From positions 1 through 64,000 of the forward strand of contig CAVYCN010000008.1 in the NCBI GenBank assembly GCA_963767005.1: a stretch of DNA of 64,000 bases, written 5' to 3'. A program made the position numbers and the translations under genes. The notes below the pieces were generated by a model. It did not search any database, was not told where the DNA came from, and saw nothing but the letters and a program-made list of their open reading frames with translations. Below are positions 11,287 to 60,910 of the stretch, one piece after another. The DNA comes from an uncultured Actinomycetes bacterium. Its GTDB lineage: Bacteria; Actinomycetota; Thermoleophilia; UBA2241. Positions within the stretch are counted from its first letter, which is position 1; each line of letters starts with the position of its first letter.

Positions 11287-11509
11287 GTGGGCCCTCCGGC
11301 GGCTGTTACCCGACCAACGTACCTCATCGAGTTGTCGGCTGCGTCCCGGCAGAACTTGACGATGGCGCCGTTGCCGGCCCGGGGGCGCCGGGCGGGGCAC
11401 GGGCGCGCTGGTTTTGCGGGCCCGGGCGGCAGGGACAATCTGAGGGCTCGGCAAGTGCGGGCCGGGCCGTGGCGGGGGCGTTCGACGGCCGGCCGGAAGG
11501 GAGGCTTCG

Positions 11510-38250: not shown

Positions 38251-39714
38251 CTACGGCAGCCCGGCGACGACGTGCTCGAGCAGCCGGATGAGAGGCGAGG
38301 GGTAGACGCCGAAGAACAGCACGGCGGCGACCACGACGGCGAGGGTCGAGGGGCCGGCGAGCCGGCCGGCGGCTGTGGCCAGGGGCGGCAGCGCCGCCGC
38401 GGCGTCTGCTTCGAGCGGCTTCTGCACGTACATGGCGACGACGATCCGCGTGTAGTAGTAGAGGCCGACGGTGCTCGTCGACACGAGCACGATGAGCAGC
38501 CACCACAGGTTCGAGCCGGCGCCGGCCGTCACCACGTAGAACTTGGCGAGGAAGCCGGCCGTCAGCGGGATGCCGGCCAGCGAGAACAGCACCGCGGCGA
38601 AGGTGCCGGCGAGCAGCGGCCGGCGGGCGCCGAGGCCGCGGTAGTCGTCGATCCGCTCGGCGTCGCGGCCGTCGGGGCCGGACAGCTCGGCGACGACGCC
38701 GAAGGCGCCCAGCGTGGTCGCGAAGTAGGCGACGAGGTAGAAGAGCACGGCGACCGCCGCCGTGCGGCCGAGGGCGAGGAAGGCGACCAGGATGTAGCCG
38801 AGGTGAGCGATCGACGAGTAGGCGAGCAGCCGCTTGACGTTGGTCTGCAGGAGCGCGAGCAGGTTGCCGGCCACCATCGACGCGGCGGCGATCGCGGCGA
38901 AGATCACCCAGACGGTGTCGTGCGGCGCGAGCGTCACGTGACGGAAGTAGCGCAGCAGGAGCGCCACCATGGCGCCCTTCGAGACCGTCGCGACGAAGGC
39001 GGTGACCGGCGCCGGCGCGGCCTGGTAGATGTCGGGCGTCCACATGTGGAACGGTACGACGCCGAGCTTGAAGCCGATCCCCACGATGATCAGGGCCAGG
39101 CCGCCGATCAGCACCTCGGTCTCGCCGGCGCCGCCGGTCACGTGCAGGCCGGCGAGCCCGCTCAGGCTCATCGTGCCGGTCTCGGCGTAGACGAGCGCCA
39201 TGCCGAAGAGCAGGAACGCGGCGGTGGCGGCCGCCAGCACGAGGTACTTGACGCCGGCCTCGATGAACTCGGGACGCTTGCGCGGGTAGGCGATCAGCGT
39301 GTAGAGCGAGACCGAGAGCACCTCGAGGCCTAAGAAGAACGAGGCGAAGTGGGTCGAGGCGACCAGGGCGGCGCCCCCGAGCGTGGCGAGCAGCAGCAGC
39401 GTGTAGTAGTCGTGGGGCCGCTCGCCGCGGCGCTCGAGGTAGCCGTACGACAGCAGCACGACGCCGGCCGTGGTGGCCGCGAGCAAGCCGATGAAGAACA
39501 GGGTGTAGTCGTCGAGCAGCAGCAGAGGAGTCACCTGCCGGTCGGCGCGCGTGGCCGCGACCGGCAGCATGGCGACCGTCCAGGCGAGGCCGGCGAGCGT
39601 GAGCCCTACAGTGAGCCGGTGGCTGCGGTGGAAGGTGCTGGCGACCATCACGATCACCGGCGACAGCGTGAGCGCGATGAAGGGCAGCAGGGTGACGGCG
39701 TCGGCGGGCTTCAC
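38251..39714 (-). CDS. nuoN: NADH-quinone oxidoreductase subunit N
   Basis: EAGVKY, FKLGVVPFHMWTPDIYQ.AP, KRLLAYSSIAH, SLAGIPLTAGF. Confidence 0.96.
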   Translation of the reverse strand: MKPADAVTLLPFIALTLSPVIVMVASTFHRSHRLTVGLTLAGLAWTVAMLPVAATRADRQVTPLLLLDDYTLFFIGLLAATTAGVVLLSYGYLERRGERPHDYYTLLLLATLGGAALVASTHFASFFLGLEVLSVSLYTLIAYPRKRPEFIEAGVKYLVLAAATAAFLLFGMALVYAETGTMSLSGLAGLHVTGGAGETEVLIGGLALIIVGIGFKLGVVPFHMWTPDIYQAAPAPVTAFVATVSKGAMVALLLRYFRHVTLAPHDTVWVIFAAIAAASMVAGNLLALLQTNVKRLLAYSSIAHLGYILVAFLALGRTAAVAVLFYLVAYFATTLGAFGVVAELSGPDGRDAERIDDYRGLGARRPLLAGTFAAVLFSLAGIPLTAGFLAKFYVVTAGAGSNLWWLLIVLVSTSTVGLYYYTRIVVAMYVQKPLEADAAAALPPLATAAGRLAGPSTLAVVVAAVLFFGVYPSPLIRLLEHVVAGLP

Positions 39715-41279
39715 TGCGGCGCTCCGGTGTCCGACCCGGTGGGCTCGGTCGCCACGCCCGGACCGGCGGGGCGGTCGGCGGCGGACGCCGCCGGGGCGTT
39801 GCGCACGGCGTGCTGCTGCAGGGCGGTCAGGCTGGGTCGCACGGCGTTGAAGATCGGCTGGGGGTAGACGCCGAGCCAGAGCAGCGGCGTCGCCATGGCC
39901 GCCAGCATGACGCCCTCGGCCGGCGAGAGGTCCTTCATGACCACGGCCGGGGTCTCGCGCCCCTGGAAGACGCGCTGCACGATCCACAGCGAGTAGACGG
40001 TGGCGGCCACCAGGCCGACCGCGCCCAGCACGGTGGCCGGTTCGCTCACGCGCCAGGTGCCGAGGAGGATGAGGAACTCGGCCACGAAGTTGCCGAGGGT
40101 GGGCAGGCCGAGCGAGGCCAGGGCGAAGACGAGAGCCGCCGCGCCCATGCGCGGCGCGGTGATCCAGAGGCCGCCCATCTTCTCCATGTCGCGGGTGTGC
40201 AGGCGGTCCTGCATGAGGCCGACGATGGCAAACAGGGCGCCGGTCGAGAAGGCGTGGCAGACGATCTCGAGCACCGCGCCCTGCAGGGCGAGCGAGTTCC
40301 AGGCGAAGATCGCGAGCAGCACGAAGCCCATGTGACTGACGCTCGTGTAGGCGACCAGGCGCTTGAGGTCGCGCTGGGCGAAGGCGAGCACGGCGCCGTA
40401 GAGGATGCCGAGCACGGCGAGCGCCATGAACAGCGGCGCCAGGCGGAAGGCGGCGTGCGGGAACAGCGGCACCATGAAGCGGATCATCCCGTAGGCGCCG
40501 ATCTTGATGAGCAGCCCGGCGAGCACGAGGCTGCCGGCGGTCGGCGCCTGCGTATGGGCGTCGGGCAGCCAGGTGTGCAGCGGCACGGCCGGCAGCTTGA
40601 CGGCGAAGGCGGCGAAGAAACCGAGCAGCAGCCAGGTGGCGGTGGCCGTCGACAGGTGCGTGCCGAGCAGGCGCAGGTAATCGAAGGTGTAGACGCCCGT
40701 CTGGCGGCCGTGGATGACGTAGAGCGCGATGATCGCGACCAGCATGAGCAGGCCGCCGATCTGGGTGAACAGGAAGAACTTGATCGCCGCGTAGACGCGC
40801 CGCTCGTGGCCCCAGAGCGCGATCAGGAAGTACATCGGCACGAGCATCATCTCGAACAGGAAGTAGAAGAGGAACAGGTCGAGGGCGGTGAACACGCCGA
40901 CCAGGGCGGCGATCGTCCAGAGCAGCATGAAGTGGAAGAAGCCGACGCGCTCGGTGACCTCGTGCCACGACGACAGCACGGCCAGCAGGCCCAGCGCGTA
41001 GCAGAGCGTGACGAGCAGCAGGCTGAGGCCGTCGGCCGCCAGGAAGAAGCTGATGCCGAGCTGCGGCACCCAGCTCGCGTGCACGCTGACCACGAAGGGG
41101 CCGTGCGCGGCGATGCTCAGGGCGTGGCCTTTCAGCGCCCACTCGACGACCGTGGCGACCAGGCCGGCGCCCATGGCGAGCGCCGACACCCAGCGGGCGA
41201 CGTCGGGGCGCCGGCGGCCGGCGATCCAGGCGACGACGCCGGCGACGAAGGGCCAGGCGAGCAGCGCGACGAGGATCAT
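39711..41279 (-). CDS. nuoM: NADH-quinone oxidoreductase subunit M
   Basis: DGLS, FEMMLVPMY, KLP.VPLHTWLPDAH.QAPT.GS, AYTSVSHMG. Confidence 0.96.
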   Translation of the reverse strand: MILVALLAWPFVAGVVAWIAGRRRPDVARWVSALAMGAGLVATVVEWALKGHALSIAAHGPFVVSVHASWVPQLGISFFLAADGLSLLLVTLCYALGLLAVLSSWHEVTERVGFFHFMLLWTIAALVGVFTALDLFLFYFLFEMMLVPMYFLIALWGHERRVYAAIKFFLFTQIGGLLMLVAIIALYVIHGRQTGVYTFDYLRLLGTHLSTATATWLLLGFFAAFAVKLPAVPLHTWLPDAHTQAPTAGSLVLAGLLIKIGAYGMIRFMVPLFPHAAFRLAPLFMALAVLGILYGAVLAFAQRDLKRLVAYTSVSHMGFVLLAIFAWNSLALQGAVLEIVCHAFSTGALFAIVGLMQDRLHTRDMEKMGGLWITAPRMGAAALVFALASLGLPTLGNFVAEFLILLGTWRVSEPATVLGAVGLVAATVYSLWIVQRVFQGRETPAVVMKDLSPAEGVMLAAMATPLLWLGVYPQPIFNAVRPSLTALQQHAVRNAPAASAADRPAGPGVATEPTGSDTGAPQ

Positions 41280-41353
41280 GGCGTCACCTCGCGGCCGGCC
41301 GCACCGCGGGCGCCGGTGGCGATGTCGTCGAGGCGCTGACTCGCCCTGCTCAT
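41276..41353 (-). CDS. 25-aa mini-ORF bridging nuoL stop and nuoM start
   Basis: ATGA overlap at both ends; MSRASQRLDDIATGARGAAGREVTP. Confidence 0.35.
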   Translation of the reverse strand: MSRASQRLDDIATGARGAAGREVTP

Positions 41354-43236
41354 CGCAGCACCACGAACAGGACGCCTACGGCGACGCCCAGGCCGACGAC
41401 GAACACGTAGGAGCGCACGAGACCGTTCTGCGTGGCCGACAGGCCGCGCCAGCCGGCCCGGGTGAGGCGCGCGAGGGCGGCCACGGGCGGGTCGAAGAGG
41501 TCGCCCCTGCTCACGCGCGCGAACCACAGGAAGGGCACCTCGAACGCGTAACGGTAGAGGGTGTCGAAGCCCCAGCCGGCCAGGAAGAAGCGCGCGGCAA
41601 ACGACGTCTCGGCCTCGGCGCGCTCCTGGCGGCGGCGCTCGTAGAGCAGCCAGCCGAGGCCGATGCCGGCGACGGCGATCACACCGGGCAGGTACACCGT
41701 CCAGGCGTCGGCGGCCAGGCCGGCGTGGCGCAGCGCCGCCTCGGGCAGCACCGGCGCGAGGAACTTGTCGAGCGCCTGGATGTGCGCCCAACCGCGCGGG
41801 ACGTCGATCAGGCCGGCGACCACGGAACCCACGGCGAGCACATACAGCGGCAGCCTGATCGCGAGGCCGGTGCGAAAGCCGGGCCGCGGCTCGGTGCGCA
41901 CGGGGCCGAAGAACACCGTAAAGACGGCGCGGAACGAGTAGAGGCCGGTGAGCAGGGAGCCGACCAGGCCGCCTGCCCACAGCCAGGCGCTGCCCTGCGT
42001 GGACTGCAGGGCGCGGTCGATGATGAGGTCCTTGCTGTAGAAGCCGGCGGTCACGATCGGCAGGGCCGACAGGGCGGCGGCGCCGATCAGGAAGGTCCAG
42101 AAGGCCAGGGGCAGCCGCGTGCGCAGGCCGCCCATCCTGAAGATCTCGTGCTCGTCGTCCATGGCGTCGATCACGACGCCGGCCGACAGGAACAGCAGCG
42201 CCTTGAAGAAGGCGTGGGTGATGAACATGAACACGCCGGCCGACCAGGCGCCGACACCCAGGGCGAGGAACATGTAGCCCACCTGGCTGACCGTCGAGTA
42301 GGCAAGGATGCGCTTGAGGTCGACCTGGAACAGGGCGCTCACACCCGCGTAGAGCAGGGTCGCCGCGCCGATCACGGCGACCGTGGTGCGGGCCGCCGGC
42401 GCGAGGTCGAAGAGCAGGTTGGTACGAGCCACGAGGTAGACGCCCGCGGTGACCATGGTCGCGGCGTGGATGAGGGCGCTGACGGGCGACGGGCCGGCCA
42501 TGGCGTCGGGCAGCCAGGTCTGCAGAGGAAGCTGCGCCGACTTGCCGACCGCGCCGCCCAGCAGCAGCAGGGCGGCGGCGACCGGCAGGGCGGAACCGTG
42601 CGCCCAGGTGGCCGCCGCGCGATGCATGAGCGGCTGGATCTGCAGCGTGCCGAGCTGCGTGTACAGCAGGAACAGCCCGACGATCAGCGCGGTATCGCCG
42701 ACACGGGTGACGACGAACGCCTTGCGGGCCGCGTAGCCGTTGTACCAGTGCTTGTACCAGAAGCCGATCAGCAGGTAGCTGCACAGGCCGACGCCCTCCC
42801 AGCCCAGGTAGAGCAGCAGCAGGTTGTCGGCCAGCACGAGCACGAGCATGAAGCCCACGAAGAGGTTCATGTAGGTAAAGAAGCGGGCGTAGCCGTCGTC
42901 CGCGGCCATGTGCTCCACCGAGTAGAGGTGGATGAGGAAGCCCACGCAGGTGACGATCAGGATGAAGCAGATCGCGAGCGGATCGAGGTAGAGGGCGACC
43001 TGCACCTTGAGGCCGGCCACGCTGAACCAGGTCCACAGGGCCTGGTCGAAGGCGTGGCCGGCCGGCGGCGCGGCGATGAAGTCGAGCGAGACGGCGAGCG
43101 CGACGAGCGCCGCGAGGCCGACCGAGCCGGCGCCCACCAGGGCCACGCCGCGCTGCGGCAGGCGGCGCCCGCCGAGGGCCAGCACGGCGAAGCCGGCGAA
43201 GGGCAGCAGAGGCACGAGGAAGAGGGCGTGCAGCAT
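41350..43236 (-). CDS. nuoL: NADH-quinone oxidoreductase subunit L
   Basis: GWEGVGLCSYLLIGFW, GKSAQLPL.TWLPDAMAGP.PVSALIHAATMV, THAFFKALLFL. Confidence 0.97.
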   Translation of the reverse strand: MLHALFLVPLLPFAGFAVLALGGRRLPQRGVALVGAGSVGLAALVALAVSLDFIAAPPAGHAFDQALWTWFSVAGLKVQVALYLDPLAICFILIVTCVGFLIHLYSVEHMAADDGYARFFTYMNLFVGFMLVLVLADNLLLLYLGWEGVGLCSYLLIGFWYKHWYNGYAARKAFVVTRVGDTALIVGLFLLYTQLGTLQIQPLMHRAAATWAHGSALPVAAALLLLGGAVGKSAQLPLQTWLPDAMAGPSPVSALIHAATMVTAGVYLVARTNLLFDLAPAARTTVAVIGAATLLYAGVSALFQVDLKRILAYSTVSQVGYMFLALGVGAWSAGVFMFITHAFFKALLFLSAGVVIDAMDDEHEIFRMGGLRTRLPLAFWTFLIGAAALSALPIVTAGFYSKDLIIDRALQSTQGSAWLWAGGLVGSLLTGLYSFRAVFTVFFGPVRTEPRPGFRTGLAIRLPLYVLAVGSVVAGLIDVPRGWAHIQALDKFLAPVLPEAALRHAGLAADAWTVYLPGVIAVAGIGLGWLLYERRRQERAEAETSFAARFFLAGWGFDTLYRYAFEVPFLWFARVSRGDLFDPPVAALARLTRAGWRGLSATQNGLVRSYVFVVGLGVAVGVLFVVLR

Positions 43237-43237
43237 G

Positions 43238-43546
43238 TCAGCCTCGCATCCTGTTCGCGGCGTCGATGTCGAGCGAGCCGAAGGCACGCCGGAACAGCAG
43301 CGCCAGCGCGAGGCCCACGGCCACCTCGGCGGCCGCCATGGCGAGGATGAAGATGAACATGACCTGGCCGTCGGGGCGGCCCCAGCGCGAGCCGGCCACG
43401 ACGAAGGCCAGGCCGGAGGCGTTCAGCATGATCTCGATCGAGGCCAGCACGAAGATCAGGTTGCGGCGCACGAGCACGCCGGTCAGGCCGACCAGGAACA
43501 GGGCGGCGGCCAGGTAGAGGCCGTACTGGAAGGGCACGTGGGCCAT
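43238..43546 (-). CDS. nuoK: NADH-quinone oxidoreductase subunit K
   Basis: [23 protein letters not shown]. Confidence 0.96.
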
Positions 43547-44169
43547 CAGGCATCCCTCCCCACGGCCTGCCGCAGCGGCTCGCCGGGCCGCGGCGGTTCG
43601 CCGGGCCGCGGCGTTTCGCCCGGCCGCGGCGGCTCGACGAACTGCGCCTCGCCGCCGCGCACCCGCTCGAGCTCCGGCTCGCGCTGGCGCTGGCCGAGGT
43701 GACGAGCGCCGATCAGGGCGGCGAGCAGCAGCGTCGAGGCCAGCTCGACGCCGATCGCATAGGGCCCGTAGAGGGCGACGCCGACCGCGCGGGGCGGCAC
43801 CGCGTGCACGCCGGTGTGGGCCGCCGGACCGGTCGAGATCGCCAGGGCGAGCTCGACGAGCAGGGCGACGGACAGCAGGCCGGGGCCGAGGAACGAGATC
43901 GGCCGCAGGCGCGCGGGCTCGTCGCCCTCGGCCTGGCGACCGACGTTCAGGAGCATCACCGTGAACAGGAAGAGCACGATGATGGCGCCGGCGTAGATGA
44001 TCACCTCGAGGGCCGCGACGAACGGCGCGCCGAGGGTGTAGAAGACGACCGCCACGGCGAGCAGCGACACGACCAGATAGAGCAGCGCGTGGATCGTGTC
44101 GCGGCGCGTCACGACGAGCAGCGTCGAGACGAGCGCGACGGCGGCGGCCAGGTAGAAGACGACGGTCAC
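43546..44169 (-). CDS. nuoJ: NADH-quinone oxidoreductase subunit J
   Basis: [42 protein letters not shown]. Confidence 0.95.
43577..43636. repeat. In-frame 18-bp tandem repeat (~3.3 copies) in the nuoJ tail
   Basis: ggYtcgccgggccgcggc-like units encoding (P/T)PRPGE x3. Confidence 0.9.
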
Positions 44170-44186
44170 GGCTCGCGCGTCCTCAC
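44166..44186 (-). CDS. 6-aa mini-ORF bridging nuoI stop and nuoJ start
   Basis: GTG AGG ACG CGC GAG CCG TGA; GTGA overlap at both ends. Confidence 0.3.
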
Positions 44187-44695
44187 GGCAGCAGCCGCTT
44201 CGGATCGTACGGCGGGGCCTCGTGCTCGGCCTCGCCGGTCGCCTTGCCGCCGATGGCGAGGCCGGCGATCCGGTAGAAGTCGTAGTCGTGGTACTTGCCG
44301 GTGCCCGCGATCAGCAGGTCTTCCTTCTCGTAGACCATGTTGGCGCGCACGTACTCGCTCATCTCGAAGTCTGGGGTGAGCTGGATGGCGTAGGTCGGGC
44401 AGGCCTCCTCGCAGTAGCCGCAGAAGATGCAGCGCGAGAAGTTGATGCGAAACCACTCGGGGTAGCGCCGGCCGTGCTCGTCCTGCGTAGCCTGCAGCGC
44501 GATGCAGTCGACGGGGCAGGCCACGGCGCACAGGTAGCAGGCCACGCAGCGCTCGCCGCCGTCGGGGTCGCGCGACAGGATGATGCGCCCCTTGAAGCGC
44601 GGCGGGTGGTAAGCCATCTCCTTGGGGTACTCGACCGTGTCGCTGCGCCGGAACAGGTGCAAAAAGACGATCCACAGGCCGCGCAGCAGGCTCAT
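44183..44695 (-). CDS. nuoI: NADH-quinone oxidoreductase subunit I
   Basis: [14 protein letters not shown] and [15 protein letters not shown] (2x[4Fe-4S]); alternative GTG start at 44704. Confidence 0.97.
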
Positions 44696-44745
44696 CGCCG
44701 CCACCTCGTCTCTGCACGGCCGGCATGATCACACGCCGCCCTCAT
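44692..44745 (-). CDS. 17-aa mini-ORF bridging nuoH stop and nuoI start
   Basis: [17 protein letters not shown]; ATGA overlap at both ends. Confidence 0.3.
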
Positions 44746-45761
44746 CTCTGCACCGCCAGCACGATCGCGCCGGTGACGGCGAGGTTGGCGAGCGAGATCG
44801 GCAGAAGGATCTTCCAGCCGAGCTCCATGAGCTGGTCGTAGCGCGGCCGCGGATAGGTGGCGCGCACGAGGATGAAGAAGGCGATGAAGGCGAACGTCTT
44901 GATCAGGAACCAGACGAAACCGGGCAGCACAGGCCCGAGCCAGCCGCCGAAGTAGAACGTCGCGATGAGCGCCGAGATGAGCGTGATCCCCATGTACTCG
45001 CCGACGAAGAACATGCCGAACTTCATGCCGGAGTACTCGGTGTGATAGCCGGCGACGAGCTCGCTCTCAGCCTCGACCAGGTCGAACGGGATGCGGCGCG
45101 TCTCGGCGAAGCCGGCCAGCAGGAACACGACGAAGCCGGGGAACTGGGGCACGATGTACCACAGGCCGCGCTGGCCCGCGACGATGTCGTTCAGGCTGAA
45201 CGAGCCGGCGAGCAGCACCACGCCGGTGAGCGCGAGACCCATGAAGACCTCGTAGCTGATCATCTGGGCGGCCGCTCGCAGGCCGCCGATCACCGAGTAC
45301 TTGCTGTGCGAGGCCCAGCCGGCCAGGGCCACCGAGTAGACGCCGAACGACGACATCGCCAGGAAGTAGAGCAGGCCGACGTTCATGTTCGCGACCACGA
45401 CGGTGTGGTTGACCGGCACGACGGCGAAGCCGAGCAGCACCGAGAGCACGATGATGGCCGGCGCGGCCACGAAGAGCGCGCGGTCGGCAAAGGGCGGGAC
45501 CCAGTCCTCCTTCGTGAAGATCTTGATCATGTCGGCGACCGGCTGCAGGAGCCCGGCCGGTCCTACCCGGTTGGGGCCCAGGCGGTCCTGGAACAGGCCC
45601 AGGAGGCGGCGCTCCATCCAGATGAGGAAGGCCGCGACGTTGAGCGCGCCGAGCAGCACGATGAGCACCACCACGACCTTCCAGAGGTCCTCGGCCCAGG
45701 CCGCGACGCCGAGCGGCGCGGCAGCGAGGACACGGGCGAGCGGCAAGGCGAGGTCAGGCAT
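44742..45761 (-). CDS. nuoH: NADH-quinone oxidoreductase subunit H
   Basis: ERRLLGLFQDR.GPNRVG, KEDW.P, AQ.ISYE, PFDL.EAE.EL..GYH.EYSGMKF, PRPRYDQ. Confidence 0.97.
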   Translation of the reverse strand: MPDLALPLARVLAAAPLGVAAWAEDLWKVVVVLIVLLGALNVAAFLIWMERRLLGLFQDRLGPNRVGPAGLLQPVADMIKIFTKEDWVPPFADRALFVAAPAIIVLSVLLGFAVVPVNHTVVVANMNVGLLYFLAMSSFGVYSVALAGWASHSKYSVIGGLRAAAQMISYEVFMGLALTGVVLLAGSFSLNDIVAGQRGLWYIVPQFPGFVVFLLAGFAETRRIPFDLVEAESELVAGYHTEYSGMKFGMFFVGEYMGITLISALIATFYFGGWLGPVLPGFVWFLIKTFAFIAFFILVRATYPRPRYDQLMELGWKILLPISLANLAVTGAIVLAVQR

Positions 45762-48573: not shown

Positions 48574-48574
48574 G

Positions 48575-49963: not shown

Positions 49964-50420
49964 AGCGCGAGAGGATCTCATCGATGCGCTCGGGTGTGAG
50001 GTCGCCGTGGAAGTCCTCGTCGATCTGCATCGCCGGCGCGTGGTCGCACTGCGCGAGGCAGACGATCGGCAGGAAGGTGAAGCGGCCGTCGGGGGTCGTC
50101 TCGCCGAGCTCGATGCCGAGCCGTGCGCTCAGGTGCTGGCGCATGCGCTCGTAGCCCATCACGTAGCAGCAGTCGCTGTCGCAGATGAGGATGACGTGGC
50201 GCCCGACCGGCCGCCGGAACACCATGTTGGCGAAGGTCGCGGGCGAGTCGAGCTGCTCGACCGTCTCGCCGAGCAGCTCGGCGATGTCGGCGAGCGCCTC
50301 GTCGGACAGCCAGCCGCGGTGCTTCTGCACGATGCGAAAGGCGCTGGCCGCCGCCGACCGGGCGTGCGGGTAGTGCGGCAGGACGGCTTCGATCTCGGCG
50401 CGTTCTTCGTCGCTCAGCAT
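49956..50420 (-). CDS. nuoE: NADH-quinone oxidoreductase subunit E
   Basis: PVGRH.I.ICDS..C, T.DGRFT.LP..CLAQCD ([2Fe-2S]). Confidence 0.95.
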   Translation of the reverse strand: MLSDEERAEIEAVLPHYPHARSAAASAFRIVQKHRGWLSDEALADIAELLGETVEQLDSPATFANMVFRRPVGRHVILICDSDCCYVMGYERMRQHLSARLGIELGETTPDGRFTFLPIVCLAQCDHAPAMQIDEDFHGDLTPERIDEILSRYE

Positions 50421-50459
50421 GGTGTCCTCAGGGCGCGGTCTGCGGGCCTTGGCACGGCG

Positions 50460-52223: not shown

Positions 52224-52224
52224 G

Positions 52225-52875
52225 TCAGACCTCGCTCTGCGGTCGCAGCTCGGTCTCGGCGCTGCGCTCGGGCCGCTTGAGGTCGCGCAGCGACACCGGC
52301 TCGGCGCGCGTGGCGCCTTGGGGGCCGACCACCCAGCTGAGCGGCCGCTGCTCGGTGCCGACCATGGCCTGCAGCAGGAGCAGGCCCTCCATGAAGGCGG
52401 TGGGCGACGGCGGGCAGCCCTGGACGTAGACGTCGACGGGCAGGAAGGTGTCGACGCCCTGCACCACGCTGTAGCAGTCGAACATCCCGCCGGAGTTGGC
52501 GCACGAGCCCATCGAGATGACCCAGCGAGGCTCCATCATCTGCTCGTAGAGGCGCTGTACGATCGGCGCCATCTTGAGGAACACCGTGCCGGCCACCACC
52601 ATGACGTCGGCCTCGCGAGGCGAGATGCGCAGCACCTCGGCGCCGAAGCGCGCGATGTCGTAGCGCGGCGTCACGGTGGTGGCGAGCTCGACGAAGCAGC
52701 ACGACAGGCCGAAGTTGAACGGCCACATCGAGTTCTTGCGACCCCAGGCCACGAGGTCCTGCAGGCTGCCGAAGGCGGTCGGCGGGCGCTGGCCGAACAC
52801 GCCGGGCGCAGTGGTCGCGAGGCCGCTCAGAGCGAGGGCGGTGCGGGAAGGCCCGCTGGTGCGCGGCCGCTTCAC
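52225..52875 (-). CDS. nuoB: NADH-quinone oxidoreductase subunit B
   Basis: [41 protein letters not shown]; GTG overlaps the oxidase stop. Confidence 0.97.
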
Positions 52876-55349
52876 AGCAGGTACACCACGATGAGGATGG
52901 CGATCCAGACGGCATCGACGAAGTGCCAGTAGTAGATCGCCGACTCGACCATGCCGGGGGTGCCGGTGCCGCGCGCGATCGCTGCGGCGGGACCCTCGCC
53001 GGCCGGCACGACGCGACGTGTGCGATCGCCGGCCTGCCGGAAGAGCAGGTAGACGAGCAGCAGGAGCCCCACGGTGACGTGGGCGCCGTGCAGGCCGGTC
53101 AGGGTGAAGAACGACTCACCGGTGAGGCCGCTCGAGAGGCCGAAGCCGGCGTGCGTGTACTCCCAGCCCTGGCCGCCCAGGAAGACCACGCCCAGGATCA
53201 TGGTGACGACGAGGTGGAAGCGGAACCAGCCGATGCGGTCCTTGCGGTAGCTCGTCAGGGCGTAGTGGGCGAAGATCCCGCTCGACATGAGGATGACCGT
53301 GTTGACGATGGGCAGCGTGAGCGGCAGCCGGCCCGACGTCGTGTTCAGCGTGACGAAGTTGTCGTGGATGCGCAGGTGCAGGTCGGCCGCCAGCAGCGCG
53401 CCGAACAGCACGACCTCGGAGCCGATGAAGGTGAGCGTGCCGGCGCCGAGGGCGGTGAAGCGCTGGCCGGGCACGACCGGTGGCTGGGGGACCGTCCAGC
53501 GCGCCGACACCCAGAGGGCGGCCAGGACGAGCAGCAGGGCGATGCCGATGAACGACACGACCAGGCTGGTGAGCAGGCCGACGCCCACGACGACCGCGGC
53601 GAGCGCCGTGACCAAGGGCAGCTTCGTCCAGTGGTCGGCGTGCGGCGGCGGCGCGTGGAGGGCGGCCACCTCGGCGGCTCGTCGGGCCGCCGGCGACGTG
53701 GTGTCGAGCGCCGGGGCGCCGGACTGGCGGGCGCGCTTCATGTCGAACAGCGGACGCTCGCTTGTGATCACCGGCAGCTCGTAGGTGAAGTTGTCCTCGG
53801 GGGGCGGTGAGCTCGTCGCCCACTCGAGTGTCCAGGCATCCCAGGGGTCGTCGCCGGCCGGCTCGCCGGCGACGAGGCTGCGCACGACGTTGACCATGAA
53901 GACGACCATGGCCGCGCCGATCGTGAAGGCGCCGATCGCCGAGACGAGCTCGAGCGTCGTCCAGCCGATGTTCGCGGGGTAGGTATAGATGCGCCGCGGC
54001 GCGCCCATGAGGCCGAGCGCGTACATGGGCATGAAGGTCAGCAGGAAGCCGACCAGGATCACGGCGAAGTGGATCTTGCCGAGGCGGTCCGACAGCATCC
54101 GGCCAGAGAACTTCGGGAACCAGTAGTAGAAGGCCGCAAAGCCGATGAACACGGTGCCGCCGAACAGCACGTTGTGCAGGTGGCCGACGATGAACATGCT
54201 GTCGTTGGCCTGCCAGTCGAAGGGCACCGAGGCCTGCAGCACGCCGGTGATGCCGCCGATCGTGAAGGTCGCGATCATGCCGCAGGCGAAGAGCAAGGGG
54301 GTCTTCAGGCGCAGGCTGCCGCCCCACATCGTGGCGAGCCAGTTGAAGATCTTCACGCCGGTGGGCACGGCGATGATCATGCTGGTGGCCGCCATGATGG
54401 CGTTGAAGTAGCTGGGCAGGCCGGTCGCGAACATGTGGTGGCCCCACACGAGGAAGCCGATGAAGCCGATCGCGGCGAGGCTGATGATCATCGCCGAGCG
54501 CCCGAACAGCGGCTTGCGCGAGAACACCGGCACGATCTCGCTCATCATGCCGAAGGCCGGCAGGATGAGGATGTAGACCTCGGGGTGGCCGAAGAACCAG
54601 AACAGGTGCTGCCAGATGATGGGGTCGCCGCCGCGCGCCGGATTGAACCAGCCCGTGTGGTGGTAGCGGTCGAGGTAGAGCAAGCCGGCCGCCACGGTGA
54701 GGCTGGGGAACGCGAAGAGGATGAGCAGCGAGTTGACGAACGTGGCGATGCAGAGCAGCGGCATGCGGCGGAAGCTCATGCCGGGGGCGCGCAGGCGCAG
54801 CATGGTCATGATGAAGTTCACGGCGCCGGCGATCGACGAGACGCCGAGCAGCAGCAGCGCCACGATCCACAGATCGACGCCGCGCGGCGAGAAGGCGCGC
54901 TCGGTGAGCGGCGCATAGCTGAACCAGCCGGTGTTGAGCAGATCGCCGTTGAAGACGCCCGAGTAGAACAGGATGCCGCCGAACAGGAACAGCCAGTAGC
55001 TGAGCGCGTTCAGGCGCGGGAAAGCCATGTCGCGGGCGCCGATCATGATCGGCACGAGGTAGTTGGCAAAGCCGATCAGCATGGGCATGGCAAACAGGAA
55101 GACCATGGTGGTGCCGTGCACCGAGAAGGCCTCGTTGTACTGCTCGGGGGTGAGCACCTTCAGGCCGGGCAGCATGGTCTGCGTGCGCATCGTGATGGCG
55201 ATGCACATGCCGATCAGAAAGAAGACGAGCGACGTCGTCATGTACTGCTTGCCGACGTGCTTGTGGTCGGTGCCCATGAGCCAGGCGGCCAGGCCGCGCG
55301 GCTCTTCGCCGACGAGGGCGACGTCGTGGGGCAGGGTGATGTCCGTCAT
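52872..55349 (-). CDS. ctaD: A1-type heme-copper oxidase subunit I fused to subunit III
   Basis: [38 protein letters not shown]; C-terminal [13 protein letters not shown] and YWHFVD of subunit III; a single 825-aa ORF. Confidence 0.95.
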
Positions 55350-56368
55350 CTCAGCTCATTCAGGTAGGCGACGATCTCGCTCACGATCTGCGGCGTGAGC
55401 GGCACGTCGGGCATGCGCGTGCCGGGCTTCACGCCCTGCGGGTCGGCTATCCAGCGCGTCAGGTTCGCCGGGGTGTTGGTGAGGGTGACGGCGGCGATCG
55501 TGCTGCGGCTCGCGAGGTGCGTGAGGTCGGGGCCGAACGTGCCGTGCAGGCTGGTGCCGCGGATGGTGTGGCAACTGGCGCAGGGCAGGCGCGTCATGGC
55601 CGCCTCGCCGGCGATCGCCTGCGTCCCGGTGGCCGTGACGGCAGGCTTGAGCTGGTCGTGGAACCAGGTCGAGAAGGCGGCCGGCGACTCGACGTAGACC
55701 AGGAAGTGCATGTGGGCGTGCTGGGCGCCGCAGAAATCGGCGCACACGCCCAGGTACCTGCCGGGGGTCACCGGCAGGATCGTCAGGTAGTTCACGTGGC
55801 CCGGGATGAGCTGGATCTTGCCGGCGATCTGCGGGCACCAGAAGCTGTGGATGACGTCGGCCGACAGCAGGTCGAGCCTGACCGTCTGGTCGGCCGGGAT
55901 GTGGATCTCGTTCGCGGTCGCGAAGTCGGCGCCCGCGTAGCTGACCTGCCACCACCACTGGTGACCGGTCACCGTGAGCTGCACCGGGTCGGCGGGGCCG
56001 ACGAGCCGTCCGGTGGTCTGCATGGTGAGGCTGAACAGGACGACCACGATGATCGCCGGGATCACCGTCCACACCGCCTCGATCGTCGTGTTGCCGTGCA
56101 CCTGGCTGGCCTCGCGACCGGGACGCTCGCGGAACCTGATAAGCACGAGCGCGAGCAGTGTCCAGACGGTGATCAGCACGCCGGAGAGGATGGCGAACAT
56201 GGTGATGGTCAGCACCTTGATGTCGTGGGCGCTCGCGCCGTGGGTCTGGAACACGTTCGGCGAGACCTGCGTGCAGCCGGCGAGGCCGGCCGTCAGGGCG
56301 ACGAGGACGGCCGCGCGCAGCACGACCGGGCGCAGAGCGTGGACGCGGCGTGCGGGCTCGCGCGTCAT
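55346..56368 (-). CDS. ctaC: Cytochrome c oxidase subunit II with C-terminal cytochrome c (caa3 type)
   Basis: Lipobox LAGC, E.VWT.IP, GHQWWW, DVIHSFW, CADFCGAQHAHM (CuA), CASCH...GPDLTH...KPG..MP. Confidence 0.95.
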   Translation of the reverse strand: MTREPARRVHALRPVVLRAAVLVALTAGLAGCTQVSPNVFQTHGASAHDIKVLTITMFAILSGVLITVWTLLALVLIRFRERPGREASQVHGNTTIEAVWTVIPAIIVVVLFSLTMQTTGRLVGPADPVQLTVTGHQWWWQVSYAGADFATANEIHIPADQTVRLDLLSADVIHSFWCPQIAGKIQLIPGHVNYLTILPVTPGRYLGVCADFCGAQHAHMHFLVYVESPAAFSTWFHDQLKPAVTATGTQAIAGEAAMTRLPCASCHTIRGTSLHGTFGPDLTHLASRSTIAAVTLTNTPANLTRWIADPQGVKPGTRMPDVPLTPQIVSEIVAYLNELR

Positions 56369-57288
56369 CGCGTCACCAGCCTTTCGATGATCATGGCCAG
56401 AAGGAGCACGGCGAGGTACGGTCCCGAGAGCTTGTGCAGCAGCCACGCGGTCGTCCGGCGGCGACGGCCGGCCAGGTCGCCTGCGAGGGCGAGAAAGACG
56501 AGGCCGGCCGGCGCGGCGACCAGCAGGTAGCCCGTCCCGTACATCCCTATCACCACCGGCGTCAGGCTGAGGGCTACCAGGGCGGCGGCGGCGGCGAGGA
56601 TCATGCCCGCCGCCGCGCGCTCGCCCAGGGCGACGGGCGGCGTGGGGACGCCCGAGGCCAGGTAGTCGTCCTGCAGCGCGAAGGCCAGCGCCCAGAAGTG
56701 GGGCGGCGACCAGACCGCGATCAGGGCGCAGAGGAAGACGATGTCAGTCGTCAGGCCGCCGCCGGCCGCCGTCCAGCCGATCAGGGCCGGGAACACGCCG
56801 GCGAGGCCGCCGGGCAGGGAGCTGAGCGCGGTGCGCGGCTTGATGAGCAGCGTGTAGACGACCACGTAGTAGACGACGCCGGCGGCCGCGAACAGGGCGG
56901 CGGCGGCGCCGCCGCAGCTCCACACCGCGCCGACGCCGGCGGCTATCGCGGCGAGGCCGGCGAGGAGCGCGGTCCGCGGGTCGAGCGTGCCGTCGGCCGT
57001 CGGCCGACGGCGGGTGCGCGACATGACGGCGTCGAGGTCGTGCTCGCAGGCGTTGTTGAGCAGGGCGGCGCCGCCCACGGTGAGCGCCGCCGCGGCGACG
57101 ATCGCGACCGTGCTGGCCGGCCCGCGCGGGCCGGCCAGCACGGTCGCGACGAGCACGGTGAGGGCGAAGAGCGCGACGATGCGCGGCTTGGCGGCGCGCA
57201 CGAGCGCGCCGCCAAGCCGCGCATCGCGGTGCAGGCGACCGTTGCGCAGGTCGAGGCGCGGCGCGGCGTGGTCGAGCGCCCAGCTCAA
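56365..57288 (-). CDS. ctaB: Protoheme IX farnesyltransferase (heme O synthase)
   Basis: KPRI, N...E.DLD.VM.RT..RP, YT..IK.RT, W.PPHFWAL, DDY; TTG start overlapping the qcrB stop is inferred. Confidence 0.92.
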   Translation of the reverse strand: MSWALDHAAPRLDLRNGRLHRDARLGGALVRAAKPRIVALFALTVLVATVLAGPRGPASTVAIVAAAALTVGGAALLNNACEHDLDAVMSRTRRRPTADGTLDPRTALLAGLAAIAAGVGAVWSCGGAAAALFAAAGVVYYVVVYTLLIKPRTALSSLPGGLAGVFPALIGWTAAGGGLTTDIVFLCALIAVWSPPHFWALAFALQDDYLASGVPTPPVALGERAAAGMILAAAAALVALSLTPVVIGMYGTGYLLVAAPAGLVFLALAGDLAGRRRRTTAWLLHKLSGPYLAVLLLAMIIERLVTR

Positions 57289-58679
57289 AACGCCGGCTCC
57301 TTCACGATCACCGGCGCGACGGCCGCGTGGCGCCGGCGGAACACGGCCCAGGCGATCAGGCCGACCACAAACGGCAGGCCGAGCGTGAGGCCCTGCATGA
57401 CCGCGACGACGGTCGGCAGGCTCCAGTGGAAGTGCACGGCGTACACGTCGTCGCCGCCGGCGATCAGCAGCATGACGAGGAACGTGACGAGACCGAAACC
57501 GATCGCCGTGCGCCCCGGCCGGTCGCGCGGCGTCTGCAGCAGGTTGTGGAGGTCGTCGTCGCGCGTGATGAAGGCGTCGAGCCACGGCCACGAGAACAGG
57601 AAGCCGGCGATCACGCCGGGCAGCACGGCGGCCGGCCAGAACAGGCCGGGCAGCAGGAAGCCGCCGATGTGGATGTCCGAGGAGGGCATCAGGCGCACGG
57701 CGCCCTCGAGCCAGCCGGTGTACCAGTCGGGCTGGGCGAAGCTCGTCGAGTTCCACGGCGTGTACGGTCCGTACAGCCAGACCGGGTTGATCTGGATGAA
57801 GCCGCCCATCGCCGTGAGCAGGCCGGCGAGCATGAGCATGAAGCCGCTCGTGCGCAGCGCGTAGGCCGGCACGAGCGGCGTGCCGACGATCACCCGGTCG
57901 CTGCGCTTGCGGCCGCGGTACTGCGTGTGGCGCTGGACCCAGAGCAGACCGAGGTGGGCGCCGAGGACGCCCGCGATGGCAGCGGGGACGAGCAGGATGT
58001 GCAGGGCGTAGATGCGCGGGATCAGGCTGTTCGTCGGGAAGCCGCCGCCGAAGAGCAGCGAGGCCATGTTGGGCCCGATCAGGGGCACCGACTGGGTGAT
58101 CGAGTAGGCGATGCGCAGGCCGGTGCCCGACAGCAGGTCGTCGGGCAGCGAATAGCCGAAGACGCCGTTCAGGATCACGAGGATCAGCATGGTCAGGCCG
58201 AGCAGCCAGTTGAGGCGCCGCGGGCGCCGGTAGGCGCCGGTGAAGAACATGCGCAGCAGGTGCAGCACGATGGCCGCGGCGAACACGAGCGCGGCCCAGT
58301 GGTGCACCTGCCTGACGAGCAGGCCGGCGCGCACGTCGAAGCTGAGGCGCAGGACCGAGTCGTAGGCCTGGGACACGACCGCGCCGTGGAGCGGCTGGTA
58401 GCGGCCGGTGTAGACGGTCGGCGCCACCGAGGCCTTGAAGAACATCGTGAGGTAGATGCCGGTCGCGATCAGGATGATGAAGCAGTAGAGGCCGATCTCG
58501 CCGAAGAAGAACGACCAGTCGTCGGGGAAGATGTGGCGCAGCTCGCGACGGATGAGGCCGCCGCCGCCCGTGGTCGAGTCGAGCCAGGCCGCCACCCGCC
58601 GGTAGCGGCCGCGCGGCAGGCGGAACGAGCGCGCGAGCGAGCGGTCGAGCCGGTCGCCTGCTGTGGGCTCGTCAGGCAT
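57285..58679 (-). CDS. qcrB: Actinobacterial-type cytochrome b of the bc complex
   Basis: FPD.WSF..GEI.LY, RQ.HHWAA, H..R.FFTGA.RRPR, GYSLPDDLLSG.GLR, LHI, HL, QPDWY. Confidence 0.95.
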   Translation of the reverse strand: MPDEPTAGDRLDRSLARSFRLPRGRYRRVAAWLDSTTGGGGLIRRELRHIFPDDWSFFFGEIGLYCFIILIATGIYLTMFFKASVAPTVYTGRYQPLHGAVVSQAYDSVLRLSFDVRAGLLVRQVHHWAALVFAAAIVLHLLRMFFTGAYRRPRRLNWLLGLTMLILVILNGVFGYSLPDDLLSGTGLRIAYSITQSVPLIGPNMASLLFGGGFPTNSLIPRIYALHILLVPAAIAGVLGAHLGLLWVQRHTQYRGRKRSDRVIVGTPLVPAYALRTSGFMLMLAGLLTAMGGFIQINPVWLYGPYTPWNSTSFAQPDWYTGWLEGAVRLMPSSDIHIGGFLLPGLFWPAAVLPGVIAGFLFSWPWLDAFITRDDDLHNLLQTPRDRPGRTAIGFGLVTFLVMLLIAGGDDVYAVHFHWSLPTVVAVMQGLTLGLPFVVGLIAWAVFRRRHAAVAPVIVKEPAF

Positions 58680-60342
58680 ACAGGTTCCAGAAGCCGGGGC
58701 CGATGGGCTCGTCGAAGTCGTGCTGGGCCACGAGAAAGCCGTCGGCGTCGATCGCGAGAGGAAGCTGGGGCAGCGGCCGCGAGGCCGGGCCGTGGACCGG
58801 GCGGCAGCCGTCGAGCAGGTCGAAGGTCGACTGGTGACAGGGGCAGAGCAGGACCTGGGCCTCGTCCTCGTACTGCGCGACGGCGCAGCCGGCGTGGGTG
58901 CAGACGCGCGAGTAGGCAAAGAAGCCGTCGGGGCTCCAGGACTCGCGACCGGGCAGCGGTGTGACACCGGCCAGGCGCACGAGCGCGACCTGCGAGTCGG
59001 CTGCGGCGGTGTGACCCTCGGGGAACGCGACGATGAAGCCGCCGCCCTGCAGCGCGTCGCTGCGGATGGGCTGGTTGTCGGGCGTGACGAGGCGGCGCCC
59101 CGGCCGCCATGCCGTCGAGTACAGGCCGCGCGACTTGGGGCCGAGGCCGCCGAGCAGCACGAGCTGGCTCAGGCCGACGACGCCGGCGGCGCTCACCAGC
59201 ACGCCCGTGAGGAACCGGCGCCGAGTGAGCACGCCGGCGCTGCGGGCGAGCTCGTCGCCCAGCGCCGCCGGCTCGTCGGGCTCTCCGGCCGCGGCCGCGA
59301 CGGCCGGCTCTGCCGGCAGCGGGTAGCGCCCGATCTCGACGTCGTCGCCCGAGAGGTCGCGGCCCCAATAGGCCAGGGCGAAGCCCAGGCCGAGGAAGGC
59401 GAGCGCGAGCGTGCCGCCGATCCGCGCGGTGTCGTTGCCGAGCACGAAGAGGACGACGAAGGCCACGGCTCCGCCGACGGCCACGAGCAGCGCGAGGCCG
59501 GCGGGCCACCCGGGCGCCGGCTGCTCGGCGCCGGCGGGCTCTGGCTTGACCTGCCCCTTGCCCCAGGCCAGCCACACGGTGAGCAGGATGAGCAGGCCGA
59601 GGCCGCCGGCGGCCGCGAAGCCCTCGGTCACCGGTCCGACGTAGCCGAGGCCCCAGCCACCGGGCGAAGCCGGCGACTCGAGGGTCTCGACGAACAGGGC
59701 GACCGACGCGGTCTGACGCACGTTGAACGTGGTGCCGGCGAAGATCGGCATGTTGCCGCGGCCGAGGATCATGGCGGCGATGGCCTCAGCCGCGGGGTAG
59801 TTGGAGAGGCGCGGCGCGTTGCGGCCCTGGCTCAGCGCGCCGCCGCGCCCGGTCGAGCTGTGGCAGCCCGAGCAGTAGAGGTGAAAGAGCTGCTGACCTT
59901 CGCCCACCGTGGCGTCGTGGGCCTGGGGCGCCGCGATCTGGGTGGCGACGTAGCCGGCGACCTCGTCGACCTGGACGGGTGAGAACTGCGGGAACGCCGG
60001 CATCTGGACGCCGCCGCGACGCACCATGCCGGCGACGAGGCTGGGAAAGGCGTCGGCCGCCTGGCTCGGCCCGATCAGGCCCTCGCCGTGGTCGCCGTGG
60101 CAGCCTGAGCAGTTCGCCGCGAAGATTGCGGCGCCCGGGCCCGCGGCCGGCGCGGTCGAGTCGGACGCGGCGCCGGCCAGGGGAGTGGCGGTGACCGCCG
60201 GGATAGGGCTGGACGAGGGCGACGCGGCCGCTGTGGGGCCGGCACTCGCCGCCCGCACGACGGCCGGCAGGACGATGGCGACGACCACCGCCACGACGAG
60301 CAGCAGCGCGGCGAGACGAAGGCGACCTGCGCGGCGCCGCAT
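58672..60342 (-). CDS. Fusion of diheme cytochrome c (QcrC) and Rieske protein (QcrA)
   Basis: Signal peptide, CSGCH x2, GPV.EG plus TM (QcrC C-terminus), two further TMs, TRRRFL twin-arginine helix, CTHAGC and CPCHQS. Confidence 0.9.
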   Translation of the reverse strand: MRRRAGRLRLAALLLVVAVVVAIVLPAVVRAASAGPTAAASPSSSPIPAVTATPLAGAASDSTAPAAGPGAAIFAANCSGCHGDHGEGLIGPSQAADAFPSLVAGMVRRGGVQMPAFPQFSPVQVDEVAGYVATQIAAPQAHDATVGEGQQLFHLYCSGCHSSTGRGGALSQGRNAPRLSNYPAAEAIAAMILGRGNMPIFAGTTFNVRQTASVALFVETLESPASPGGWGLGYVGPVTEGFAAAGGLGLLILLTVWLAWGKGQVKPEPAGAEQPAPGWPAGLALLVAVGGAVAFVVLFVLGNDTARIGGTLALAFLGLGFALAYWGRDLSGDDVEIGRYPLPAEPAVAAAAGEPDEPAALGDELARSAGVLTRRRFLTGVLVSAAGVVGLSQLVLLGGLGPKSRGLYSTAWRPGRRLVTPDNQPIRSDALQGGGFIVAFPEGHTAAADSQVALVRLAGVTPLPGRESWSPDGFFAYSRVCTHAGCAVAQYEDEAQVLLCPCHQSTFDLLDGCRPVHGPASRPLPQLPLAIDADGFLVAQHDFDEPIGPGFWNLYA

Positions 60343-60752
60343 CACGACCCCCGGCGGCGGCGTTGCCGGCCGCTCGTGCCCCAGTCGAGGGCGCCGAGAC
60401 GCCACAGGTACACGAGGCCGGCCAGCAGCAGGACGATGAAGACGAGGGCCTCGACGTAGCCGCTCCAGCCGGCCTGCCGCAGGCCCACGGCCCAGGCGAA
60501 GATGAAGACGGCCTCAAGGTCGAAGATCACGAAGAAGACGGCGATCTCGTAGAACTCGATCGAGAAGTGGCGCGGCAGCGGACCGGCCGGCGGCAGACCC
60601 GACTCGTAGCGCTCGTCGGTGGTCAGCTCACGGTGCCGCTGGCCGAGGAGGCTGGAGACGACGACGATGCCCACGGTGATGACCGCGGCAAGCGCTGCGT
60701 ACACCAGAAAGGGCCATCCGGCTCCTGAGATGGCCACGACAGTCGACCCCAC
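60342..60752 (-). CDS. nuoA: NADH-quinone oxidoreductase subunit A
   Basis: YESG, FY..A.FFVIFDLE..F..AW, GLVYLWR.GALDW. Confidence 0.96.
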   Translation of the reverse strand: MGSTVVAISGAGWPFLVYAALAAVITVGIVVVSSLLGQRHRELTTDERYESGLPPAGPLPRHFSIEFYEIAVFFVIFDLEAVFIFAWAVGLRQAGWSGYVEALVFIVLLLAGLVYLWRLGALDWGTSGRQRRRRGS

Positions 60753-60785
60753 GCTTCGACCCCCTGCTGCCAGACACGGCCCTGG

Positions 60786-60811
60786 CTACCCTGGAAAGAG
60801 CTCGCGGAACC
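60786..60811 (-). promoter_or_regulatory. Possible SigB/SigF-type promoter for the respiratory operon
   Basis: GGTTC-N15-GGGTAG ending about 34 nt before the nuoA GTG. Confidence 0.3.
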
Positions 60812-60910
60812 GCGTTTGGCCCCAGCGATGCTGCCAGTTAGGTAGGAAACAGGCAGGAGGCCCCTCTCGTCCAGTGTTTGGCGCTCCCGAGGCCAGCGCC
60901 GCGCGCTGAT

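Follow-up and report, generated by a model that had tools for sequence, protein, structure and literature searches.

A window of 64,000 nt from an uncultured Actinomycetes bacterium (contig CAVYCN010000008.1; the window is the whole stretch of DNA that was analysed, and its genome is denoted G000) contains a 22.5-kb block in which a cassette of genes for respiratory complexes III and IV lies between nuoA and nuoB of a complex I (nuo) operon. Because this nuo cluster adjoins the cassette in all 54 cassette-bearing genomes found in the order, and both are absent from 18 well-assembled relatives, the conserved unit is a co-inherited NAD(P)H-to-O2 module, nesting being one of its three layouts. 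As judged from gene layout, the block is probably a co-regulated and co-inherited aerobic module whose complexes are linked via the quinone pool, with no physical I-III-IV particle required.

The block comprises 18 genes, each identified by Pfam and NCBIfam, that run on the minus strand from 60752 to 38251. Their order, nuoA-[dihaem cytochrome c + Rieske]-qcrB-ctaB-ctaC-ctaD/E-nuoB-CD-E-F-G-H-I-J-K-L-M-N, had been predicted from the sequence and agrees with the Pfam and NCBIfam assignments. The features, including the upstream leader and a small open reading frame (mini-ORF), are:

60753..60910, minus strand: non-coding leader upstream of nuoA (alignment of upstream regions)
60342..60752, minus strand: nuoA, complex I membrane subunit (PF00507; dN/dS 0.20 versus the relative G011)
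58672..60345, minus strand: qcrC-qcrA fusion (Pfam)
57285..58679, minus strand: qcrB, actinobacterial-type cytochrome b (NF050120; PDB alignments)
56365..57288, minus strand: ctaB, haem O synthase (TIGR01473, over cut-off)
55346..56368, minus strand: ctaC, caa3-type oxidase subunit II carrying CuA ligands and, at its C terminus, a cytochrome c (Pfam, PDB)
52872..55349, minus strand: ctaD/E, fused oxidase subunits I and III, A1-type (PF00115 and PF00510; 2yev_A)
52225..52875, minus strand: nuoB (PF01058)
50460..52223, minus strand: nuoCD, fused, clade E / NUO13 type (NF008728, over cut-off)
49956..50420, minus strand: nuoE, 154 aa (Pfam/NCBIfam)
48575..49963, minus strand: nuoF, with CGEA instead of CGEE (alignment to 7awt_F)
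45754..48573, minus strand: nuoG, 939 aa, with N7 cluster motif (TIGR01973)
44742..45761, minus strand: nuoH (Pfam/NCBIfam)
44183..44704, minus strand: nuoI, two 4Fe-4S motifs, start approximate (Pfam, motifs)
43546..44169, minus strand: nuoJ (Pfam/NCBIfam)
43238..43546, minus strand: nuoK (Pfam/NCBIfam)
41350..43236, minus strand: nuoL (Pfam/NCBIfam)
41276..41353, minus strand: mini-ORF of 25 codons that overlaps both the stop of nuoL and the start of nuoM, with ATGA at either end (sequence)
39711..41279, minus strand: nuoM (Pfam/NCBIfam)
38251..39714, minus strand: nuoN (Pfam/NCBIfam)

The prediction that one block, free of gaps and on a single strand, encodes a complete NAD(P)H-to-O2 chain is thus borne out, with cofactor motifs intact and with signs of purifying selection (dN/dS versus G011 of 0.09-0.45 in all eight genes tested). 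The GC content of the block, 0.67-0.76, is similar to that of the remaining window and the genome.

To examine how far the order is conserved, 89 genomes of the order were searched for QcrC/QcrA, and the regions of all 53 cassette-bearing relatives were fetched. Matches were obtained in 54 genomes, all from one family. In 12 of these, including G000, the cassette is nested; in 39, the nuo cluster and the cassette are arranged head-to-head; and in three they are in tandem, with ctaE followed by nuoA-B. Nine of the 12, G000 among them, have both nesting junctions on a single contig, one has them on two contigs, and two show one junction before the contig end. A hard-wired nested order, as originally proposed, is not required, given that 42 of the 54 cassette-bearing genomes have one of the other two layouts, and nesting as a rule of the family was rejected.

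The layouts also differ internally. Most non-nested loci, and the nested G013, have ctaB in inverted orientation. copCD follows ctaE in the head-to-head loci and in two nested ones, G013 and G021; the three tandem loci lack it at that position. Head-to-head loci have in common an intergenic control region of ~200 nt with a core conserved in 21 of 25; no full Rex, CRP or FNR consensus palindromes were found in these 25 regions. In the head-to-head G014, the two modules are separated by a 6.6-kb gap, which contains NfnAB-like genes, apparently frameshifted, and a trimethylamine-methyltransferase-like gene between nuoA and qcrC (L163:13600-15900). The head-to-head locus G077:C25:834000-852000 is further rearranged, with COX1 on the opposite strand ~8 kb past ctaB, and in G021 (L033), G022 (L031) and G064 (L189) the nuo and cta genes contain many frameshifts, which may be sequencing errors or module decay.

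Co-inheritance is apparent from the 50 family genomes that are at least 85% complete: both modules are present in 31 (two of which escaped a strict NuoCD search owing to a frameshift or the end of a contig), neither in 18, and a partial NuoCD only in one fragmented genome. Fifteen of the 18 genomes with neither module have no COX1 match whatsoever. Among the 80 distant COX1 loci listed from GTDB, two, L038 and L039, carry the module. L038, a Thermoleophilia record, does so at ~50-75% identity. L039 is titled Bacteroidetes and contains a head-to-head module (55-71% identity) like that of genus g10, which may reflect mislabelling, misbinning or transfer. On an Acidobacteriaceae contig (L076:1983-8936), ctaC-D-E and a Rieske/cytochrome b pair come immediately after a partial nuoN (56-85% identity), possibly a separate nuo-cox linkage seen on one short contig. 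The only nuo hits of an Amycolatopsis locus (L113:57-11608) are to genes of the membrane arm (A, H, K, L, M and N), with ctaD ~2 kb further.

All six overlaps predicted between nuoA and nuoB are present in the window (GTGATG at 60345, ATGCCTGA at 58679, TTGA at 57288, ATGA at 56368, ATGA at 55349 and, at the ctaD/E-nuoB junction, GTGA at 52875), and genus g1, to which G000 belongs, has zero intergenic DNA from nuoA through nuoB. An in-frame start at -1, -4 or -8 was found in 459 of 1313 close same-strand gene pairs of G000 (35%, with a crude gene caller); overlaps being this frequent, they are weak evidence when taken alone. Among the nested loci, the nuoA/qcrC overlap is kept in 10 of 11 although the NuoA tails differ, and the ctaE/nuoB overlap in seven of 11, with a 55-nt gap in two and an inserted copCD gene in two. 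In the genus of G000, the block is probably transcribed as a single 22.5-kb mRNA. One coupled operon, as predicted, is not a family-wide rule, because 42 of the 54 genomes have other layouts and ctaB is inverted inside the nested block of G013.

The leader upstream of nuoA is likely a promoter region. It contains a conserved motif at ~60777-60791, common to the nested loci of genera g1 and g11, which occurs in exact form in 15 of 218 loci, every one upstream of a nested nuoA; the copy in the window is off by one base. A promoter scan of the block found one sigma-70-like site, inside coding sequence, versus 0.7 expected by chance, and the eight terminator-like sites in the block, versus 3.9 +/- 2.6 by chance, all lie within coding sequence.

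The unusual gene order raises the question of an assembly artefact, given that G000 is probably a metagenome assembly in which RpoC (TIGR02386) was not found despite a stated completeness of 100%, so that absences from this genome need care. Both junctions were nevertheless bridged by contigs from two other sequencing runs: a contig of run X1 spans 52786-53079 (ctaE/nuoB) with no differences, and a contig of run X2 spans 60280-60606 (nuoA/qcrC) with one. The 11 other nested genomes, with protein identity up to ~95%, argue the same way, as do 27 metagenome loci, possibly from the same sources as the genomes, of which nine contain the nuoA/qcrC junction, three the ctaE/nuoB junction and two both. 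Misassembly is accordingly ruled out for practical purposes, its residual probability being negligible.

The complex I of the block is of the Escherichia coli type. All 13 subunits are present with their Fe-S motifs. The features of clade E (NUO13), as given in the accessible text of Spero et al. (PMC4453560), include a fused NuoCD and a long NuoG; here the former scores 866 bits against NF008728 (cut-off 840), and the latter, at 939 aa, contains the N7 motif CxxCxxxC-x27-C. According to the same text, nuo genes are colocalised in 86% of genomes when fewer than 10 intervening ORFs are allowed. NuoF departs from the Glu183 expected in clade E: in the alignment to its best PDB match, 7awt_F (best NuoF structures, E 3e-133), Ala187 stands opposite Glu183, and the motif reads CGEA rather than CGEE. 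CGEA was found in all 41 module loci with a readable motif (44 examined), and the best 120 database homologues of NuoF include 94 with CGEA, 25 with CGEE and one unread. Glu183 is presumably the position that confers selectivity for NADH, and an E. coli complex I carrying the E183A mutation reportedly oxidises NADPH. By this one residue and that mutant, the NuoF of the block probably accepts NADPH besides NADH. In the accessible part of PMC6302529, one sentence mentions E. coli NuoF working with NADPH.

A complex I with fused NuoCD also stands alone in two sister families, f4 and f6 (L173-L188), where nuoA directly precedes nuoB and the cassette is absent in all 16 loci (~12 kb upstream visible in nine). 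The NuoF motif is CGEA or CGEG in all eight loci of f4, and CGEE in six of the eight loci of f6, with two unread. The occurrence of Ala or Gly in f4 without the cassette makes the substitution older than the module and not an adaptation to it. The stand-alone enzymes are mostly found in genomes without an A-type oxidase. Elsewhere in the complex I of the block, the C-terminal end of NuoJ is a proline-rich repeat (PPRPGE-like, three to four copies; 43546-43640, minus strand). The mini-ORF at nuoL/nuoM has 25 codons in the window, six in G001 and three in G014; in each case it overlaps its neighbours by 4 nt at either end, and it is a possible translational-coupling relay.

Complex III is classed as actinobacterial bcc type on the basis of a dihaem QcrC, a three-helix Rieske protein QcrA, an actinobacterial QcrB and the gene order C-A-B. 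The QcrC-QcrA protein contains two CxxCH motifs, membrane helices, a twin-arginine-like RRRF and a Rieske domain (CTHAGC / CPCHQS). It is a single open frame in genus g1 (intact in G000, G011, G008, G005 and G004) and two genes in other genera. NF050121 and NF050122 are the best models for QcrA and QcrC, with scores under cut-off, and an AlphaFold model of the fusion (pLDDT 72.6, pTM 0.43) gave Rieske/cytochrome cc chains of bcc:aa3 supercomplexes as top Foldseek matches. QcrB (530 bits to NF050120, cut-off 500; PDWY motif) has 464 aa and, in PDB alignments, is without the C-terminal ~90 residues of the solved chains of 535-573 aa.

The oxidase is of a different kind. Its best structural match is 2yev, which we take to be the Thermus thermophilus caa3 oxidase: CtaC matches 2yev_B at E 1e-55, versus E 1e-19 for 8hcr_E, and CtaD/E aligns with 2yev_A over its full length. 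The motifs DHKH, GHPEVY, WGHH, GHLH, PTGVK and H...CADFCGAQHAHM are present, and with them the features of a caa3 enzyme of the A family, namely the haem and CuB histidines, the D-channel Asp and Glu, the K-channel Lys, the CuA ligands and the haem c of subunit II. The actinobacterial models score below cut-off (NF050117, 132 vs 250 for CtaC; NF050116, 603 vs 880 for CtaD; NF050119, 87 vs 190 for CtaE), and the haem c of CtaC and the CtaD/E fusion differ from the haem c-free CtaC and separate CtaE of the actinobacterial III2IV2 supercomplex. CtaF, which has a structural role in that supercomplex, gave no PF12270 match in G000, the one genome searched, although a Corynebacterium control was positive. 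No haem A synthase (PF02628, CtaA/Cox15) over cut-off was found in G000 or in any of 25 relatives. The original prediction had borrowed the premise of an obligate actinobacterial III-IV supercomplex; the oxidase is not of that type, and the failure to find CtaF and haem A synthase weakens the argument. Since a haem O synthase gene lies in the block and no haem A synthase was found, the oxidase probably carries haem O or b rather than haem A. Judged by these matches, the chain is a mosaic of an E. coli-type complex I, an actinobacterial-type bcc complex and an oxidase like the caa3 enzyme of Thermus. Elsewhere, G000 has genes for cytochrome c maturation and one of the futalosine pathway; menD was below cut-off.

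The remaining genome of G000 looks like that of an anaerobe-type cell with an added aerobic chain. It encodes a second complex I (G000:C8:114322-129164; L165), in the order A-B-C-D-H-I/E-F-flavoprotein-J-K-L-M-N with nuoA and nuoB adjacent. In this cluster, NuoF resembles HydB (638 aa, with additional ferredoxin domains and the motif CGES), and a GltD/NfnB-like Fe-S flavoprotein replaces NuoG, which makes the enzyme a candidate for a complex I that bifurcates electrons. Another set of Rieske and cytochrome b genes, the second in the genome (C12 ~129100-131900; L166:5132-7861), is of the split b6/subunit IV type and is followed by a cytochrome c gene. COX1 occurs once in the genome, which also encodes cytochrome bd and a further three NuoEF-like pairs; the Wood-Ljungdahl protein AcsB was not found in it. 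A search of the ESM Atlas returned generic NuoF clusters only. Within the window, other genes encode a 1489-aa protein resembling acyl-CoA dehydratase activase (22876-27345, plus strand; BcrAD and DUF2229, typical of anaerobes), a DUF6421 protein (11510-13336, plus strand) and a C1 peptidase with a lectin-like domain (9454-11454, minus strand).

The history of the arrangement was traced in trees of Rieske+QcrB and Nuo proteins (16 module genomes each) and in an approximately unbiased (AU) test on NuoB-H (13), with genomes picked to span genera; G021 and G064 were left out of the test because frameshifts gave long branches. The RpoC tree has 24 rows, without G000, in which RpoC was not found. 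In this tree, nested genomes group together (88/76, with the module-less G006 inside) and the head-to-head G014 is their sister (96/99). The Rieske+QcrB tree likewise contains one nested clade (98/97) and a tandem clade (87/82). A single origin of nesting for all genes, although supported by these two trees, was rejected by NuoB-H. Module-less genomes are scattered on the RpoC tree (seven changes versus a shuffled mean of 6.6), which indicates that the module was lost or gained as a whole. G064 belongs to genus g10 by RpoC, and its module groups with genus g6. With nuoA, nuoB-N and the cassette treated as signed blocks, we infer that a head-to-head locus would become tandem by one inversion and nested by two, and that a tandem locus would become nested by three inversions or a transposition. 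In such a history, the cassette would have joined a complex I that also occurs alone in the sister families, and start/stop overlaps would then have sealed the new junctions. Nesting is probably a by-product of inversion, afterwards tightened by start/stop overlaps.

In the co-regulated module that we favour, complex I would take electrons from NAD(P)H, reduce menaquinone and pump protons, as is known for its family. QcrB and the Rieske protein would oxidise menaquinol by a Q-cycle. Haem cc would hand the electrons to CtaC, with its haem c and CuA, and from there they would reach the binuclear centre and reduce O2. Protons would be pumped at each step, and a shared menaquinone pool would join the complexes. 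The module likely gives the cell the option of using oxygen, in addition to a separate chain of the genome that looks anaerobic. Several observations weigh against this account. Co-regulation is read from the layout and not from transcripts; the relatives are kin, not independent samples; and three of the 39 head-to-head assignments depend on nuoA alone ahead of a contig end. On the metagenome contigs L209 and L210, which carry the cassette, the 5-6 kb upstream gave no nuo hit (visible downstream are 1.1 kb and 0 kb). The Rieske+QcrB tree gives no firm root order of the three layouts, and the intermediate layout predicted by the inversions was not seen among the relatives. Nuo trees place the nested G013 among head-to-head genomes (100/100), and the NuoB-H AU test rejects a single nested clade (p 0.0009), so that either modules recombined or nesting arose twice. 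Finally, NuoF with Ala or Gly is present in all eight cassette-free loci of f4.

The original prediction went further and saw in the block a hard-wired respirasome, co-expressed stoichiometrically and perhaps physically assembled. In this account, complexes I, III and IV would assemble, perhaps co-translationally, into one particle, with nesting and translational coupling fixing their ratio. The conserved nuoA/qcrC overlap would fit this view, as would the two subunit fusions in the cassette (QcrC-QcrA in g1 and CtaD-CtaE), the resemblance of the bcc part to chains of solved III2IV2 supercomplexes and the I-III-IV supercomplexes reported in Paracoccus denitrificans (PMC5040959, accessible part). 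The other evidence makes it unlikely. Most relatives (42 of 54) manage without nesting, the same complex I occurs without adjoining qcr/cta genes in all 16 loci of the two sister families, and the nested G013 has an inverted ctaB and a Nuo ancestry that differs from that of its qcr genes. NuoA of the nested genomes has no added domain, and the caa3-like oxidase carries a haem c itself, CtaF not being found in G000. Contact is also unnecessary, as quinone is a diffusible carrier between complexes. That layouts vary, that this complex I also stands alone, that G013 is a mosaic and that the oxidase is not actinobacterial all argue against taking the nesting as evidence for a particle. The specific version, in which an NADPH-accepting complex I, an actinobacterial bcc complex whose QcrC and QcrA are fused and a caa3-like oxidase with haem O come from one coupled mRNA and form one particle, is similarly doubtful. 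If true, this would be the first I-III-IV particle whose composition is encoded by gene order, with parts from three lineages.

Two other accounts concern the direction of electron flow and the cause of linkage. Complexes III and IV might build the proton gradient and scavenge O2 while an NADP(H)-tolerant complex I runs uphill from menaquinol to NADPH or, as a redox sink, burns surplus NADPH chiefly to protect against oxygen. Consistent with this are the CGEA motif of NuoF throughout the readable module loci, the same variant alone in f4 (seven of eight of those genomes without a COX1 match), the NfnAB-like genes between the modules in G014 and the reverse transport suggested for NUO13 enzymes in the accessible text of PMC4758237. 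The NADPH reading, though, goes back to the E. coli mutant. Oxidases of type A1 conserve energy and have a low affinity, and for scavenging the genome already has cytochrome bd; we consider reverse flow or an NADPH sink rather improbable. If, instead, the linkage reflected co-transfer only, the block would move or be deleted together while internal promoters regulate its parts separately. Patchy presence of the module, the discordant Nuo and Qcr trees, the g6-like module of G064 and the inverted ctaB of many loci, implying an internal promoter there, can be read this way. Yet the block has the GC content of its host, no mobility gene was seen among the flanking ORFs scanned (not every ORF was), and no plasmid record covers 80% of QcrC-QcrA. 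In g1 there is no intergenic DNA from nuoA to nuoB, and sigma-70-like sites are at chance level. Co-transfer as the sole cause is thus very unlikely.

To our knowledge, genes of another complex almost never interrupt the nuo operon; in this block an entire III+IV cassette lies inside it, conserved across three genera. If co-regulation is all there is, the block would be a striking example of how operons evolve and not a new machine. The same proteins in nested, head-to-head and tandem loci constitute a natural experiment on physical versus regulatory linkage of respiratory complexes. As a compact, potentially portable NAD(P)H-to-O2 chain, the 22.5-kb block would make both the respirasome question and the step from anaerobic life to oxygen testable in a laboratory host. 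It also offers a candidate natural NADPH-using complex I, for which the NuoF proteins of f4 (CGEA/CGEG) and f6 (CGEE) are a natural pair for probing NADPH specificity, and an unusual pairing of a bcc complex with a haem O caa3-like oxidase. The arrangement should surprise a bioenergetics specialist and be useful experimentally; the step to a respirasome finds no support.

All components belong to known families, and the arrangement and the family-wide I+III+IV module appear to be new as far as found. The original prediction knew of no description, and none was found in the open-access literature either, subscription papers and supplements being outside the scope; the accessible parts of PMC4453560, PMC4758237 and bioRxiv 10.64898/2026.09.14.751414 contain neither the arrangement nor the module, and that of PMC8097209 nothing relevant. 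Overall, the complete chain in one block and its lack of a found precedent stand, whereas the required nested order and the actinobacterial supercomplex oxidase do not.

In Paracoccus denitrificans, the genes of complexes I, III and IV lie in separate operons. Its I-III-IV NADH oxidase supercomplex (Stroh et al. 2004, as reported in the accessible part of PMC5040959) is a bacterial precedent of the particle, with biochemical evidence, unlike the block, which is known here from genes alone. Compared with E. coli-type complex I of clade E/NUO13, the block has in common the fused NuoCD, short NuoE, long N7-type NuoG and order A-B-CD-E...N, but its nuoA and nuoB are 7.5 kb apart, separated by the III+IV genes, NuoF has Ala at position 183, and the host probably belongs to a Thermoleophilia family. 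With the actinobacterial bcc-aa3 III2IV2 supercomplex (PDB 6adq, 6hwh and 7qhm; ctaE-qcrCAB operon) it shares the dihaem QcrC, the three-helix QcrA, the order qcrC-A-B, a QcrB over the NF050120 cut-off and no separate soluble cytochrome c in the block. It differs in the fusion of QcrC and QcrA (in g1), a QcrB shorter by ~90 residues, an oxidase of another type, CtaF and haem A synthase not being found, and the position of the cassette inside the nuo operon. Like the caa3 oxidase 2yev, the oxidase of the block has fused subunits I and III and a subunit II with a C-terminal haem c; unlike 2yev (SHPTVY), it is A1-type with GHPEVY, probably uses haem O or b, and shares one block with a bcc complex and complex I.

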